Origin: Acidimicrobiaceae bacterium
GTDB taxonomy: Bacteria; Actinomycetota; Acidimicrobiia; Acidimicrobiales; Poriferisodalaceae
Direction: 5' to 3'
Length of the DNA: 64,000 nucleotides
Assembly: GCA_002719335.1 (NCBI GenBank)
Contig: PBHE01000002.1
Span: 20,612 to 84,611, forward strand
Shown here: in pieces, positions 11,823 through 31,425 of the stretch
How the letters are laid out: each line of letters begins with the position of its first letter
Numbering within the stretch: the stretch's first letter is position 1
Program-made: the position numbers and the translations under genes
The notes under the pieces: model-generated
Seen by the model: the letters and a program-made list of their open reading frames with translations, nothing else
What the model was told of the DNA's origin: nothing
Databases searched by the model: none

Positions 11823-12728
11823 TCAACCCCTGCCCGTACCTTCGGCTTTAGCTGTTGCTTGAGCGGCGCGGCGCTCGTCTCCGGCGGCCGCGAGAGCCGT
11901 TCTGTTGGAGTCGTCAACCTTCATAAAATGCTGACGCCAATCATCATTGCAGTCGGCGTCCCACACGAAAGGGGTCTGCGCTGTCGTTCGGGGCTGCCAG
12001 GCACGTTCCAGGAGATCTAAGGCCATGCCAGTGATGGTTGTCTGCATCTCGACGTCTCCGGGCTTACCGGTCGGATTTCCTAGAGGAAAGTCGGTGAACA
12101 CGAATCGGCTTACTCCACATTCTTCAACAATGTCTCTTGCGCTTCCGACAACAACGGTAGGGAGGCCAGCTTCTTCAAGGTGTCGCGCAACCAGACTCAC
12201 GGTCTGGTGACATACGGGTCAGAGCGGGACTAGGACTACTGCGTCGAGTTCGTCTTGTTGAGCGAATTCAAGTATTTGCGGTGCGTCCCTGCGAGTGGTT
12301 CTTCTATGGCTGTAGTCAGTAGGCACTCCGTAGAAACGATCAGCGAGCGAGCCAATTCTGCCTTGGGCAGCAAATTCTCGTAGACGGTTGATCGGCAGGT
12401 ACGTGTCTAGGTCGTCGGTGTGGGTGTTGTCTTTATCCCAGAAGAGATCTTTGTTGTAGAGGCCTCCTAATGCGTCGCTACAAAGCGCTGCATATGGTTC
12501 CTTTGTGCCGGTGCCCGCGACACTTGTCTCGTTGATGTTCCGCTCGAAAAACGATGTAGTGACCAGTCCAATGCGGCACTTAGCGAGCGGTTTTTTAAGC
12601 GCTGCAAACGGAACGTCGTGGTGGTAAGCCCATTGGTAGGCCTGCGGGTAGCCCTGGGCTCCGTAGTAGCCGCGCGACTTGTCGATGTAACTGACATGCG
12701 AACGATGGGTGCGACGATCATCTGCCAT
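11823..12728 (-). CDS. GrdB/PrdB-family (reductase selenoprotein B-like) protein with in-frame TGA at 12219-12221, a candidate selenocysteine codon
   Basis: Track ORFs 12219..12728 and 11823..12200 share one frame and are separated by TGA plus 6 sense codons. The junction reads VLVPL-U-PVCHQTVSLVARHLEEAGLPTVVV, a UxxC motif as in the GrdB Sec region. A strong SD (GGGGGAG) precedes the ATG at 12728 only. A SECIS-like hairpin follows the TGA. Confidence 0.7.
12186..12212 (-). promoter_or_regulatory. candidate bacterial SECIS hairpin
   Basis: On the mRNA strand there is a 7-bp perfect stem ACCAGAC/GUCUGGU (12202-12208 with 12190-12196). The loop is CGUGA (12197-12201). A 3-bp lower stem lies beyond a 1x1 mismatch. 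The structure begins 6 nt after the UGA and the loop begins 17 nt after it, with G at loop position 2. Confidence 0.55.
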
Positions 12729-23119: not shown

Positions 23120-25399
23120 CTACCTTGGTGGTTCGGTGCGAACGATTCCTTGTTCCAAGAGCGCGTCGTACTTCGAACGACTTAGCTCGGCGAGTTCAAG
23201 GAAGGCGTATTCATTGTGCTCGCCCATTGTCGCTGCGGCCCTACGCATAGTGGCGGGAGTCAGTTCCAGCCGAGCTGCGAAGCGCGGCCACACGTGTGTA
23301 CCTGCCTCTGGGTGGGTAAGAGGGACGAAGAACGCAAGGCTTTCTAACTGGGGGTCATTGACAACATCGGCCGCGTCGAACACCGCCCCCGCAGGCACTC
23401 CCGCGTTCTGCAAGACCATCATTAGCGAATGATCCTCTTGGCTAGCTGTGAACGAGGACAGTCGATCGTCTAGTTCGTCGTGACGTTCCCACCTTTGGTC
23501 AGCATCGAGTTTTCGGAGGTCGTTCCAACCAGCGACTCCACACAGACCCATCCAGGAAGCGTCGTCTACAACAGAGATCGCAATCCACCGATCTTCACCT
23601 TTGCAGGGATACACGCCTTGAGGGGCGCGCCCGGGGCGACGGTTACCCCACCTACTGCTGGGGGCGCCAAGCTGGGACGCAACGACATGCTGACCGATCA
23701 TGTTGATCGCCGTCTCTACCTGCGCAACCTCAACAGTTTGGCCCGTTATCCCACAACACTGCCGATCAAGCAGCGCAACAATGGTTGCAGCAGCAGCGTG
23801 CATGCCGGCTGTGGGATCAGGCCACGCAATGCCGCATTTCCATGGGATTTCGTTCCGGTACCCCGTCAACCATGTATGACCCGCATGTCCATCAATCGTT
23901 GGACCGTATGCAACCCAGTCCTTATTTGGACCCGATCTGCCGTAACCGGGCATCGTTACGTAGGTCAGATCTGGGTTGAGTGCCCTGAGGGCTTCGCCGC
24001 TTAAGCCGAAGTTTGGCATTACTCGAGGGGCATAATTCTCGATGACTACATCAACTTTCGGAACTAACGCAGCGAAAAGTTCTCTTCCGGCCTCTTTGTC
24101 TAATTCGATGACGGCGGACAGCTTGTTATTCGCGTATTTATTGTGAAAACCATTGCGGTTCCATGGGCAATCTCCAGCTTCATCCTCTGGAAAAAAGTGC
24201 GTCGAATCGACAAGGGCTCGAGGAACTTCGCGTGGTGTGCGCGTCCACGGAACTTCGGTCATTAGGACCTCAGCCCCCAAGTCAGCGAGGATTCGCGCGG
24301 CAAGCGGCCCCGCCCAAACACGCGTCATATCTAATACCCGAATCCCACTGAGTGGTCCGTCCTTCAGTCGGTCGAGCGGTTCTTCCGCCGACGAGAAAGA
24401 CCCATGCTTTTGTTTTGGCCGAATCGACCAACTGTGATCACTAATTTGGAAAGGGGGCCCAGGCACGCGCACCCCATCAGCATCTAATTCCCAGAAATCA
24501 CGATCCTCCAGATGCGGATCAGTTAACAGATCCTCCATAGTTGCGATGGGTGCCACCGGGAGTCGTAGAGCTTGAAAGAGTCCAACCAGATCAGCTCGCG
24601 GCTGCGTTCTCAGGTAGGGAATGAGTTCTCCGTCGAGCAGCTCTTGATTGGTCATGACGTCGTAGATCGTGTCAATTCCCTCATGGTTAAGGAGATGAGC
24701 GAGACCTGCAACTTCCAAGAGTCGCTCCATCTGGTCACTTTGGCTGATAGCTAACCCGATCCATCCATCGGCACATTCGTAAGCACCAATCGGAGTTCCA
24801 GGGCCGCTGTACCGATTCCCCATTCGATTCAGAATCGCACCGTTGTGGGTGTAACGGAGGAGGCTGAACTGGTGCAGGGCAGCAACGGCTTCTTGATGGG
24901 AGGTCTCAACTATTTGACCGTGGCCGGTCCGAGCTCTCGCCATCAGCGCAGCTAACGCACCAATAAATCCCGTGACCCCTGATGCCATGTGAACGAGATC
25001 AGGGACGCCGCTGAGTGGTTCGCGTGTCGGGCTGCCACTCAACCGCAAATGTCCCGCAATGGCGGCATCTACGAGATCCGTTGATCGCCATGTTGCGTAT
25101 GGGCCTGACAACGCGAACGGGGAGATTCGGAGAACAATTTGTTGAGGATGCGATGGTTCGTACACCGACCCAATCGGATTGGTGGTACTTGATTGGATAA
25201 TGATGTCTGCCTCACCGAGTAAGCCAGGACCACTTCTGTGTTTGGAGGTGTGAAAAAAACTGCTCCCTGGAATCGGTGGGCCTTCGCCAACGACATGAAC
25301 TTCGCTCCCGTAGTCGGCGAAAAGTTTTCCTGCGTATGCACCTGCAACCGAGTCCCCTATTTCCATCACAAGCAGCGACTCCAGGGCCGTGTGGGTCAT
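23120..25399 (-). CDS. tandem (two-domain) family III CoA-transferase (CaiB/BaiF-type) fusion protein
   Basis: It is 759 aa. The second half starts with the canonical GIRVLDMTRVWAGPLAARILADLGAEV. The first half is a divergent copy. The ATG overlaps the upstream gene's TGA (ATGA). Confidence 0.8.
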   Translation of the reverse strand: MTHTALESLLVMEIGDSVAGAYAGKLFADYGSEVHVVGEGPPIPGSSFFHTSKHRSGPGLLGEADIIIQSSTTNPIGSVYEPSHPQQIVLRISPFALSGPYATWRSTDLVDAAIAGHLRLSGSPTREPLSGVPDLVHMASGVTGFIGALAALMARARTGHGQIVETSHQEAVAALHQFSLLRYTHNGAILNRMGNRYSGPGTPIGAYECADGWIGLAISQSDQMERLLEVAGLAHLLNHEGIDTIYDVMTNQELLDGELIPYLRTQPRADLVGLFQALRLPVAPIATMEDLLTDPHLEDRDFWELDADGVRVPGPPFQISDHSWSIRPKQKHGSFSSAEEPLDRLKDGPLSGIRVLDMTRVWAGPLAARILADLGAEVLMTEVPWTRTPREVPRALVDSTHFFPEDEAGDCPWNRNGFHNKYANNKLSAVIELDKEAGRELFAALVPKVDVVIENYAPRVMPNFGLSGEALRALNPDLTYVTMPGYGRSGPNKDWVAYGPTIDGHAGHTWLTGYRNEIPWKCGIAWPDPTAGMHAAAATIVALLDRQCCGITGQTVEVAQVETAINMIGQHVVASQLGAPSSRWGNRRPGRAPQGVYPCKGEDRWIAISVVDDASWMGLCGVAGWNDLRKLDADQRWERHDELDDRLSSFTASQEDHSLMMVLQNAGVPAGAVFDAADVVNDPQLESLAFFVPLTHPEAGTHVWPRFAARLELTPATMRRAAATMGEHNEYAFLELAELSRSKYDALLEQGIVRTEPPR

Positions 25400-27935: not shown

Positions 27936-29507
27936 TCAGATACCCAGCTCTTCGAGCATCGGAATGAGATCTCTGCGGAGCAATTTCCCGGTTGAAGTTC
28001 GAGGCAGTTCATCCATCAAGTGGACCGCCTCCGGTCGTTTGAAAGGAGCAAGTTTTTCCTTCGCGAACGCAACGAGTTCGTCCCCGGTCACTCCGCTTCC
28101 ATCACGCACAACGGCTGCCGCCACAACCCGCTCGCCCCATTCTTCCGACGCCACACCTACAACTGCGCATTCTAGGACTGCACCGTTTTCGTAAAGAACC
28201 GCCTCTACTTCATCAGGCGAAACGTTCTCGCCGCCGCGAATAATCACGTCTCCCGTACGACCGGCGAGGAAGAGGTAGTCATCTTCATCGAGGTAACCAA
28301 GATCACCAGTGTGAACCCAACCCTCGTCGTCGACTGTGATTCGGGTCTTTTCTTCATTACCCCAATATCCGTCCATAGCTCGGAACGTGCGCAGTTGCAC
28401 CTCGCCAAGAGTCCCGACGGCCACCGGTGCGCCCTCTTCGTCAACCACCCGGACTTCGACGTCATCGAGTACTTGACCTACCGAGGAAAGCCTCTTCAAT
28501 TTGACAGCTTGTTCCTCCTCGGAACCTTCTACCCGATGGTCATCAGGGTCGAGCACCGCGACAGTTGAGGTCGTTTCGGTTTGTCCGTACGCCCCGGCAA
28601 AGGACACATTGGACGGAAATTCACCGATCGCTCTGCGGATAACCGACGGCGGCATCGGTGCAGCACCATAGGTGATGGCTTCCATCCCTGTGAACGCATC
28701 CGCAGAGAAATTCGGTGCCTCCATAACACGTCCTAGCATTGTTGGAACAAGGAAGGCATGAGTGACAGCGTGTTGTTGGACTGTATCTATCCACGCTGCC
28801 GCTTCGAACTGAGGCAGTAGGACTACTACTCGTCCGCTGTACAGGGCATTCAGCATCGAGGTGACGCCGGCGATGTGGTACAGCGGAGCGGCCAGAGCCA
28901 TTCGACCCATATCTTCTCCAGTTGCCGCGTCGTTCGTTCCCATGACGTAGCCGGTGACGGCTCCGTTGGTCAGCTTCACCCCTTTGGGTAGCGATGTCGT
29001 CCCGCTCGTATATAAAAGAGCGCATAGACCGTCAGAGTCAACATCTTCTGGCACCGGCAACTCAAAGGCCTCATCACGAGCTACGACGTAGGAGTCTTCT
29101 TCGTTGAGCATAAACACGTGCTCAACGCTGTCTGGACGATTCTCATCGACCAGGTCTCGGTATCGACTTTCAGTGAAAAGAACCTTGATGCCGCTATCGG
29201 ACATTAGATGAGCGGCTTCTTCAGCACCGGCACGGAAGTTCATCGGAACGACGGTGGCGCCCACGAAAGCGGCGCCGAACATCGCTTCTACGCATTCGAC
29301 ACTATTCGTGGCGAAGATACCGACGCGGTCACCAACCTCTACCCCGAGCGTGGTGAGTAAACCACCGGTTTTACCAACATTTTCTAAAAGTTCAGAGTAG
29401 GTAACTTGGCGCGCGGCCTCTCCATCTTTCTCCGTTGAAGTATCAATTAGGATTATCTGCTCACCAGCAATCGACGCCGGCATAAAAAGCAACATTCCCA
29501 GGTTCAC
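27936..29507 (-). CDS. AMP-dependent acyl-CoA synthetase/ligase
   Basis: It has LLYTSGTTSLPKGV (AMP-binding P-loop), GYGQTE-like AYGQTET, and WVHTGDLGYLDEDDYLFLAGRTGDVIIRGGENV. I chose the GTG at 29507 with GGGGGGA upstream; the ORF maximum is 29567. Confidence 0.85.
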   Translation of the reverse strand: MNLGMLLFMPASIAGEQIILIDTSTEKDGEAARQVTYSELLENVGKTGGLLTTLGVEVGDRVGIFATNSVECVEAMFGAAFVGATVVPMNFRAGAEEAAHLMSDSGIKVLFTESRYRDLVDENRPDSVEHVFMLNEEDSYVVARDEAFELPVPEDVDSDGLCALLYTSGTTSLPKGVKLTNGAVTGYVMGTNDAATGEDMGRMALAAPLYHIAGVTSMLNALYSGRVVVLLPQFEAAAWIDTVQQHAVTHAFLVPTMLGRVMEAPNFSADAFTGMEAITYGAAPMPPSVIRRAIGEFPSNVSFAGAYGQTETTSTVAVLDPDDHRVEGSEEEQAVKLKRLSSVGQVLDDVEVRVVDEEGAPVAVGTLGEVQLRTFRAMDGYWGNEEKTRITVDDEGWVHTGDLGYLDEDDYLFLAGRTGDVIIRGGENVSPDEVEAVLYENGAVLECAVVGVASEEWGERVVAAAVVRDGSGVTGDELVAFAKEKLAPFKRPEAVHLMDELPRTSTGKLLRRDLIPMLEELGI

Positions 29508-29629
29508 GTTGTCCCCCCGTTGTCTAGGGGAATGATCGCGGATGAAAGCACCCGCGCGCCACACCACACCGATGATTCCTTTAACTAACTTGACTGAAGT
29601 GCAACTCAGATGCGGGTTATTCTGCCGTC

Positions 29630-30253
29630 ATGGCAAAGAACATTGAATTTTGGGTCGACCCCATATGACCTTGGTGCTGGGTGACGGCCCGTTGGGTTGT
29701 CGACGAAGTAGCAGCAGAACGTGATCTGTCAATCACTTGGCAGCCGATCAGTCTCCTTTTCAAGAATGAGCCACCTAAGGATTCCCCGTACTACGAGAGC
29801 ACGGCTACCACGCACAACATGTTGAGGGTGATGGAGTCGGTACGGGCTGCTGGGAATGAAGACAAGGTTTTCGATCTCTACTGGGAGTTATCTAGCCGCA
29901 TCCACCACGACGGCGACAGAGACTTCGACATCCAAGAGGCGCTGCTCCAAGTCGGTCTAGACGACGCTCATTCGGCCGCTGCCGAGGACGAATCATGGGA
30001 CGCAGTGATCCGAGAACGGATGGATGCAGGTCTTGCCCTAGTGGGCAACGATGTTGGGACACCCATAATCGCCTGGGACCGAGCTGATGGCGAACGCGTC
30101 GGTTTGTTCGGGCCCGTCATCACTCGGGTTCCCAAGGGCGAAGACGCCCTCAAGCTTTGGGACGCAATGATGGCGATGGGCGATATAGACGGGTTTTGGG
30201 AACTGAAAAAAACTCGCACCGAACGACCAGAATTTGGGCAGCGTCCCGCGTGA
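29630..30253 (+). CDS. DsbA-like thiol reductase of the Rv2466c (mycothiol-dependent reductase) type, with in-frame TGA at 29666-29668 (candidate selenocysteine, U-P-W-C)
   Basis: The ATG at 29630 is in frame with track ORF 29681..30253. The translation reads MAKNIEFWVDPI-U-PWCWVTARWVV, matching the family N-terminus FWFDPxCPWCW. The C-terminal FGPVITRVPKGEDALKLWD...FWELKKTRTE also matches. No SD precedes the GTG at 29681. Confidence 0.7.
29682..29702 (+). promoter_or_regulatory. candidate bacterial SECIS hairpin
   Basis: UGACGGCCC (29682-29690) pairs with GGGUUGUCG (29694-29702), giving 9 bp of which 3 are G-U. The apical loop is GUU (29691-29693). The loop begins 22 nt after the UGA and starts with G-U. 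Confidence 0.45.
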
Positions 30254-31425
30254 ATCCCAAGATCTTTCGAGATCTCAAAGTCATTGACACCGACAGTCAT
30301 TGGTCAGAGCCATACGATTTGTGGACGAGCCGAGCACCACTTAAATGGCGCGATCGCGTACCTCAGATGGTGGAACGCCACGGCAAGCGACGCTGGTGGT
30401 TTGACGGTGATATTTCCATAGGCCTACCCATCGCGTCGTCTGTGATAAATCCTGAGGGGGAAAAGATCACTGGCACCGCATTCTTCGACATGGACAACGA
30501 CGTCGTTCATCGAGCCAGTTTCGATCCTGAAGCTAGGGTTTCGATGCTCGATGCTTTAGGCATACATGCTCAGATTATGTATCCAAACGTGGCTGGTTTT
30601 GGCAATCAAAACTTTCTCAAGTCTCCCGATGCTGTTCTCCGACTACTAAGCGTCGAGATCTACAACGATGCGTTAGCGGAGTTCCAAGCGGACAGCAGAG
30701 ATCGGGTACTGGGTATGGCGCTTCTGCCTTGGTGGGATCTAGAAGCAGCGGTGAGAGAGATCGAGCGGGCCCATTCAAACGGGCTTCGGGGAGTCGTAAC
30801 GTGCGCGAATCCTGAAGAAGCAGGAGTGCCAGACATGGGGACGGCACATTGGGATCCGATTTGGCAAACATGCTCCGATCTCAACATGCCAGTCAATTTT
30901 CATATTGGTTCCTCTAAAGGCAACATGGACTTCTTTGGGCGGGCGCCATGGCCATCGTTTGGTGAGGAGCGAAAGCTTGCCGTCGGCTCGGCCAATTTGT
31001 TTATGGGGAACGCGAGAACAATCGGCAATCTGATCTACTCGGGGATCCCGGAGCGCTTCCCCGCGTTGAAGTTTGTTTCCGTTGAGAGCGGAGTCGGCTG
31101 GGTACCATTTTTCCTCGAAATGCTCGACCACCAAATGAGCGAAACGGCGCCCAATGAGCTCGCCGGGTTGTCGTTACTCCCTTCAGAATATTTCAAGCGT
31201 CAGTTTTTTGGTTGTTTTTGGTTTGAGAGATCAACCATCAAACCGACCATCGAGTTTCTGGGGAGCCAGTGCCTTTTATTCGAAACGGACTTTCCTCATC
31301 CCACCTGCCTCTACCCAAGAAACGACGTTGAACTTATGGAAGCCTTTGAGGGTGTCAAAGAAGAAGACATTCGGGCAATTCTTCAAGATAACGCTGCGGA
31401 CTTGTACCGAATAGATATTTCCTAA
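30250..31425 (+). CDS. amidohydrolase-2 family protein (ACMSD/LigW-like)
   Basis: The GTG at 30250 overlaps the upstream TGA (GTGA). It has VIDTDSHWSEPYDLW at the N-terminus and FETDFPHPTC near the C-terminus. Confidence 0.75.
   Translation: MNPKIFRDLKVIDTDSHWSEPYDLWTSRAPLKWRDRVPQMVERHGKRRWWFDGDISIGLPIASSVINPEGEKITGTAFFDMDNDVVHRASFDPEARVSMLDALGIHAQIMYPNVAGFGNQNFLKSPDAVLRLLSVEIYNDALAEFQADSRDRVLGMALLPWWDLEAAVREIERAHSNGLRGVVTCANPEEAGVPDMGTAHWDPIWQTCSDLNMPVNFHIGSSKGNMDFFGRAPWPSFGEERKLAVGSANLFMGNARTIGNLIYSGIPERFPALKFVSVESGVGWVPFFLEMLDHQMSETAPNELAGLSLLPSEYFKRQFFGCFWFERSTIKPTIEFLGSQCLLFETDFPHPTCLYPRNDVELMEAFEGVKEEDIRAILQDNAADLYRIDIS

Follow-up and report, generated by a model that had tools for sequence, protein, structure and literature searches.

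A probable selenocysteine-containing Rv2466c-like reductase of marine Acidimicrobiia, belonging to the 'DsbA 2' selenoprotein family

The Sargasso Sea supplied the first reported DsbA-like selenoproteins with a UxxC motif (Zhang, Fomenko & Gladyshev, 2005; PMC1088965), and the sequences in that paper's supplement are FrnE-like (e.g. ...VWSDFLuPWCYVGTV...). The Global Ocean Sampling (GOS) survey divides such proteins, and one of the families in its Table 2 is 'DsbA 2' (Zhang & Gladyshev, 2008, PLoS Genet; PMC2398784). This family is assigned there to pfam01323 (e-value>0.001), has a UxxC motif and comprises 18 selenoproteins from 10 samples, next to 235 Cys homologues; one member in the supplement begins MANDIEFWVDPIUPWCWVTARW. 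DsbA-like UxxC proteins are still counted among the prokaryotic selenoproteins in a 2026 review, and our literature search found no experimental study of a 'DsbA 2'/Rv2466c-like selenoprotein family.

Among Cys-containing proteins, the closest characterised relatives of the gene described here are Rv2466c of Mycobacterium tuberculosis, a mycothiol-dependent reductase/nitroreductase also called mycoredoxin-2, and NCgl2478 of C. glutamicum, in which Cys21 is the nucleophile and Cys24 the resolving residue. Reductase activity dependent on mycothiol and mycothione reductase is known in this family for these two enzymes only, and SigH control is a further property associated with them. The same literature search found no paper pairing Rv2466c with selenocysteine (Sec), or mycothiol with a 'DsbA 2'-type selenoprotein, and the link between Rv2466c/NCgl2478 and the 'DsbA 2' selenoproteins appears to be unstated in the searchable literature.

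Here, we describe a gene from a 64-kb stretch of an Acidimicrobiia contig (hereafter the window, to which all positions refer) in which, judging from comparative sequence analysis, a UGA codon very probably encodes Sec in a functional Rv2466c-like reductase. Sequence identity also indicates that the selenoprotein family is already known, namely as 'DsbA 2' of the GOS survey, and the finding is thus a rediscovery; as a discovery it carries little weight, since the family has been among the published predicted marine selenoproteins since 2008. Its tie to the characterised Rv2466c and NCgl2478, on the other hand, gives an otherwise uncharacterised selenoprotein a concrete, testable activity.

The gene, its product and its surroundings

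The list of open reading frames (ORFs) for the window shows just a truncated ORF at this locus (29681..30253). Its GTG start codon is in frame with an upstream ATG, and from that ATG the frame runs for 207 codons to the stop (30251-30253), with a single TGA as its sole interruption (Table 1). An earlier note on this DNA had pointed out both that the ORF called from the GTG leaves out the redox motif and that the upstream ATG shares its frame, and coordinates and translation agree with it. Reading through the TGA gives the N-terminus MAKNIEFWVDPI-U-PWCWVTARWVVDEV. In the assembly collection, 35 blocks contain this exact protein. We read 22 contigs carrying it and fetched five loci, all five of which have the identical ATG...TGA N-terminus.

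Table 1. Features of the selenoprotein locus, with positions in the window
Feature	Position	Strand	Details and basis
-10-like TANNNT hexamer (TATTCT)	29618..29623	+	-12 to -7 of the ATG; kept at the same distance in relatives
ATG start codon	29630..29632	+	Sole start between the upstream in-frame stop and the TGA
Predicted DsbA-like (Rv2466c-like) selenoprotein CDS	29630..30253	+	207 codons plus TGA stop; Sec at codon 13; translation, Pfam and PDB matches
UGA, very probably read as Sec (U13), first residue of U-P-W-C	29666..29668 (motif 29666-29677)	+	Codon counts across loci; alignment to Rv2466c
Putative SECIS-type hairpin within the CDS	29682..29702	+	9-bp stem, 29682-29690 / 29694-29702; minimum-free-energy fold
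Apical loop GUU, G first	29691..29693	+	Loop-supplying Arg codon is CGT in 61/63 TGA forms
Amidohydro_2 gene (PF04909)	30250..31425	+	GTG overlaps the selenoprotein stop (GTGA 30250-30253)

We scanned the read-through protein against Pfam with U written as C. It matches PF22234 (Rv2466c-like) with E = 8.8e-42 and 143.7 bits against a cut-off of 27, residues 12-194 covering profile positions 1-180 of 180, and has a second match to PF01323 (DSBA). Structures of Rv2466c in the PDB (4ZIL, 4NXI and 5XUR) align over residues 5-204 with E = 3e-41 to 1e-39, a region that includes their N-terminal strand and active-site helix. FWVDPI-U-PWCW is thereby aligned with FWFDPLCPWCW, and U stands opposite the first Cys of CPWC, equivalent to Cys21 of NCgl2478. 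The CP(W/F)C redox motif is thus present as U-P-W-C, and the Cys homologues show CPWC or CPFC in the same columns. The assignment to the Rv2466c family and the placing of U at the nucleophilic first Cys, which the earlier note had put forward with an alignment to Rv2466c as the way to check them, are both upheld by these matches.

Neither the window nor the closest relatives offer an in-frame start other than the ATG, and amino-acid conservation begins exactly there, the DNA 5' of it having diverged among relatives. Sec at codon 13 had been thought unusually close to the initiation site. This does not hold: in nearly all of the 64 related genes with a TGA at this position (described below), a start codon places Sec at codon 11, 13 or 19, and the equivalent Cys of the characterised homologues is near codon 20 (Cys21 in NCgl2478; about 19-20 along the chain in the alignment to Rv2466c).

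The ATG is not preceded by a Shine-Dalgarno sequence, and a scan of 29400-29750 for consensus sigma-70 promoters and terminators found nothing. The hexamer in Table 1 reads TATTCT, TATCCT or TAGTCT in diverged relatives. A conserved TANNNT hexamer combined with the missing Shine-Dalgarno sequence weakly hints at a leaderless mRNA, in which case the Sec codon would be at nucleotides 37-39 of the transcript and the SECIS at nucleotides 53-73.

At a distance of 62 nt, an AMP-binding (acyl-CoA synthetase-type) gene runs divergently from the selenoprotein gene. In the intergenic stretch (29568-29629), the minus-strand sequence of 29576-29582 (TTCCTTT on the plus strand) is AAAGGAA. It stands 8 nt ahead of the GTG of the AMP-binding gene and is probably that gene's ribosome-binding site. 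Between the divergent genes there is also a palindrome at 29594-29609, with the form CTGA..TCAG in the window. It is found at the same place in three related loci (L004, L007 and L008), as ATCTGA..TCAGAT in L004 and GGCTTCTG..CAGAAGCC in L007; its sequence changes among relatives and its palindromy stays. Its role could be that of an operator; alternatively, it could form a hairpin in the 5' leader of the mRNA of the AMP-binding gene.

On the other side, the stop codon of the selenoprotein gene does overlap the GTG of an amidohydrolase gene, as the earlier note had described, and the two genes are probably co-transcribed. The same 4-nt overlap is called in other assemblies. The order AMP-binding gene, selenoprotein gene and amidohydrolase is kept in about 24 loci, all of the closer clade (at 71% identity and above); both adjacency and overlap are absent from more distant TGA forms, and the amidohydrolase pairing is therefore lineage-specific. 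Translational coupling of the two genes had also been suggested; conservation of the overlap in closer relatives fits this but is no proof of it.

More widely, the annotated part of the window (1-36000) is dense in catabolic genes. It holds at least five family III CoA-transferase genes, with a 759-aa protein carrying two matched CoA_transf_3 stretches (23120-25399), several Amidohydro_2/3 genes, two luciferase-like monooxygenases, acyl-CoA dehydrogenases, enoyl-CoA hydratases, TauD and an MFS transporter.

Relatives of the gene and the hairpin behind the UGA

A protein search of 5.8 billion sequences returned 2156 relatives at E <= 1e-10. Among the matches listed, all those above about 70% identity have 190-202 residues and begin (M/V/L)TARWVV, because gene callers stopped at the TGA, and those at 61-69% identity extend over the full length and have CP(W/F)C. 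Candidatus Poriferisodalis is also found among the truncated matches. DNA was retrieved for 18 genome and 80 metagenome loci, and the motif could be located in 96 of them. At the position of U13 the codon is TGA in 64, TGC in 21 and TGT in 11, so that both the TGC orthologs and the further TGA-carrying genomes that the earlier note had proposed to look for exist (64 TGA forms vs 32 Cys forms). Such a recurrence of one TGA between the same flanks in independent loci goes well beyond chance. The full-length frame is kept across all 64 TGA loci. These come from many projects (Tara, JGI, ENA and NCBI MAGs), include marine Acidimicrobiia MAGs such as MedAcidi-G3, and reach down to 52% protein identity with the query.

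Downstream of the UGA, the sequence UGACGGCCC-GUU-GGGUUGUCG forms a hairpin in the minimum-free-energy fold of 29660-29720. The gap between UGA and hairpin is 13 nt, and the loop begins 22 nt past the UGA. This is within the UGA-to-loop range of 16-37 nt that the bSECISearch model reportedly uses. The hairpin had been given the right coordinates in the earlier note, which described a 9-bp stem with a GU-containing loop; a predicted stem-loop shortly 3' of the UGA, with G in a small apical loop, is what is expected of a bacterial SECIS. As a single sequence it is unremarkable (z = -1.5 vs shuffles), and Rfam gave no relevant match, either in the whole window at the gathering threshold or around the gene at E <= 10. 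Bacterial SECIS elements are poorly covered by Rfam.

The comparison of TGA and Cys forms is more informative. We analysed pairing in 53 distinct 51-nt segments from TGA forms and in 500 shuffles. The stem columns are paired in 98.5% of cells, and none of the 500 shuffles matches the observed pairing percentage or covariation score. One pair (21-33), formed by the third positions of a Thr and a Val codon, is G-C in 36 sequences, A-U in seven, G-U in four, C-G in three and U-A in two, with one mismatch; the next pair outward (18-36) is G-C in 47 and A-U in two, with four mismatches. In the 29 distinct sequences from Cys forms, by contrast, the same columns are only 60.9% paired, which is the level of the shuffles, tying the structure to the presence of the UGA. 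Synonymous choice in the hairpin is likewise frozen only in TGA forms (GCC 60/62, CGT 61/63, GTC 62/64), whereas the loop Arg codon varies freely among CGT, CGC, CGA, CGG and AGG in Cys forms. This covariation shows that the hairpin is under RNA-level selection only in the UGA-carrying genes, and it bears out the reading of the hairpin as a putative in-frame SECIS.

Both the Cys-form control and the covariation at synonymous sites rule out a hairpin that arises as a side effect of encoding the TARWVV peptide. Two TGA forms deviate from the pattern: in L062, CCT (Pro) replaces CGT, resulting in a CUU loop without G, and L087 has a mismatch at the covarying pair (ACC..GTA). These may be sequencing errors or decaying copies. 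With 53 sequences, clean covariation and a matched Cys-form control, the alignment makes a good training case for bacterial SECIS models.

How the UGA is read

Insertion of Sec has to be weighed against other ways of passing the UGA. Readthrough as Trp or Cys, by near-cognate or suppressor decoding, or reassignment of UGA in the lineage, is in our estimate very improbable. Such a reading draws on the fact that Sec machinery was not found in the window or the fetched loci: ARAGORN detected no tRNA gene in the 64-kb window and no tRNA-Sec in loci L001-L016 (the one tRNA there is a tRNA-Thr, in L015), and tblastn with E. coli SelA, SelB and SelD gave no match in the window or in loci L001-L018. 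UGA followed by C, as here, is also a weak termination context. However, TGA serves as an ordinary stop more often than any other codon in the window, closing 24 of 53 large ORFs including the present one, so the genetic code is not reassigned. The UGA is opposite the catalytic Cys of CxxC, the classic position of Sec, and it is accompanied by a covarying structure at SECIS distance that is present only together with the UGA.

A second gene with an in-frame TGA, PrdB/GrdB-like and a member of a published selenoprotein family, also speaks against decoding other than Sec (11823-12728, minus strand; TGA 12219-12221). Its first part matches Pfam GRDB up to profile position 345 of 347, at which point the TGA follows. 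The TGA has the context VVLVPL-U-PVCHQTVSLVARHLE, which is that of the 'Proline reductase' selenoprotein family of the GOS survey (supplement of PMC2398784), and a 7-bp hairpin (ACCAGAC-CGUGA-GUCUGGU) is located 10 nt past it, at about 12189-12207. This gene would be an independent sign of Sec use in the same genome, and as such lends indirect support; it is presumably the other candidate implied by the earlier note, which counted the present gene as its second. Furthermore, a 2026 preprint reports selA, selB, selC and selD in all 84 complete genomes of Actinomarina, which belongs to the same class as the window organism; its supplement contains no Sel protein sequences.

Slightly less probable still is the possibility that the real gene is the 190-aa ORF starting from GTG 29681, that the 51 nt upstream are a decaying remnant and that no CxxC is needed. 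All gene callers and public annotations agree on this shorter ORF (e.g. WP_419932940.1 and MGY9074120.1). Yet in the eight codons 5' of the TGA, the residues F, W, D and P do not vary across the 64 TGA loci, down to the most distant of them, while synonymous codons change freely (TTC 33 / TTT 31; CCC 30 / CCT 23 / CCG 10). This indicates protein-level purifying selection on sequence annotated as non-coding, and disfavours a decaying remnant. In addition, an in-frame start 10-18 codons before the TGA is retained throughout the TGA forms, and the product of the shorter ORF would be without residues 5-17, whose aligned positions in the Rv2466c structures belong to the ordered core and active site. 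That conservation of the motif 5' of the annotated start implies decoding of the UGA, as had been argued from the window, is thus borne out by coding selection before the TGA. With an in-frame UGA aligned to the Cys of homologues and conserved flanks on both sides, as is typical of bacterial selenoproteins, the comparison across loci shows that the UGA does not terminate this gene and that protein-level selection acts on the reading frame before and after it.

The TGA might also be an error of sequencing or assembly, or a strain-specific mutation of TGC or TGT in a pseudogene, either codon being one base away from TGA. This has almost no chance of being right and is already refuted by the comparative data, as the same TGA occurs in 64 loci from many projects and in 5/5 fetched loci of the exact gene.

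Sec at the UGA is therefore the reading we follow, and under it the public records are wrong in a consistent way. Records of TGA forms, including those in RefSeq, are 177-196 aa long, start after the TGA and lack the active site (MDG2112152.1, MFT7650633.1, HAF68717.1, HAX04572.1 and WP_419838233.1, besides the two named above). They are called 'disulfide bond formation protein DsbA', 'Rv2466c family protein' or 'hypothetical protein'. The shortening is a systematic annotation error, affecting PGAP/RefSeq and many MAG records, where such genes are cut to 190-196 aa. As a result of the truncated annotation, functional and pangenome surveys of marine Acidimicrobiia miscount this redox enzyme and under-report selenium use.

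The gene product would be a 207-residue cytoplasmic reductase with a thioredoxin fold, of the Rv2466c or DsbA-mycoredoxin family, with the active site Sec13-Pro-Trp-Cys16. During its synthesis, the hairpin would act as a bacterial SECIS, bringing SelB-GTP-Sec-tRNA(Sec) to the ribosome for Sec insertion at codon 13. Analogy with Rv2466c and NCgl2478 would make Sec13 the attacking nucleophile and Cys16 the resolving residue, the two forming a selenenylsulfide. The enzyme may, by the same analogy, serve in defence against oxidative stress, reducing either intramolecular disulfides or mixed disulfides with a low-molecular-weight thiol. What can be said of its electron donor and physiological substrate is pure analogy, mycothiol being a candidate reductant.

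In a rough neighbour-joining tree, TGA and Cys forms are interspersed, with Cys forms as outgroups. In the 48 nt from the Cys codon, one Cys lineage (L044 and L046; TGT, CPFC) still carries the hairpin sequence unbroken (GACGGCCCGTTGGGTCGTC), which suggests a 'fossil' SECIS left after a recent replacement of Sec by Cys. A further-reaching reading, which we offer as a tentative and rather doubtful one, is a selenium-dependent mycoredoxin-2 in which Sec is ancestral in a large radiation of marine and sponge-associated Acidimicrobiia and was replaced by Cys several times, with fossil hairpins in L044 and L046, and which is possibly translated from a leaderless mRNA with the SECIS about 50 nt from its 5' end. 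If true, such a selenium-dependent mycoredoxin-2 would connect selenocysteine with the mycothiol redox system for the first time.

Comparison with known selenoproteins and reductases

The 'DsbA-like' family of the 2005 Sargasso Sea study was considered as the identity of the gene and rejected. Like the window protein, the members of this family and of 'DsbA 1' of the GOS survey have a DsbA fold and U-P-W-C near the N-terminus, and their SECIS hairpin just 3' of the UGA corresponds to the putative one in the window. They belong, however, to a different, FrnE-like subfamily (COG2761), with the context (S/T)D(Y/F).UPWC(Y/F) in place of the FWVDPI-U-PWCWVTARW seen here. The strings FWVDP, TARWV and FWELK are absent from all Sargasso sequences in the supplement (PMC1088965).

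The 'DsbA 2' family is a much closer fit. One of its members (JCVI_READ_1091141745064) is 79% identical to the window protein in an ungapped alignment of all 207 residues, and the two have the same U-P-W-C motif and N-terminus, as expected of orthologs in one family. The difference is in what surrounds them: the 'DsbA 2' sequences of 2008 were single reads from no named organism, matching pfam01323 only weakly, whereas the window gene is on a 64-kb Acidimicrobiia contig with its neighbours, is tied to PF22234 and has a SECIS candidate whose covariation is quantified.

The hairpin itself can be compared with the SECIS of the E. coli fdhF type. Both are stem-loops within the coding sequence soon after the UGA, with a small apical loop containing G. 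Unlike the fdhF type, the hairpin in the window has a 3-nt GUU loop and a 9-bp stem with two G-U pairs, and no bulged U is predicted.

Finally, the M. tuberculosis Rv2466c structures (4NXI, 4ZIL and 5XUR) and NCgl2478 resemble the window protein in fold, in membership of PF22234 and in the position of the nucleophile, and all share the signature FW.DP.CPWCW(V/I)T(A/S)RW. They differ at the nucleophile, which is the Cys of CPWC or CPFC in Rv2466c and NCgl2478, and very probably Sec at that position in the window protein.
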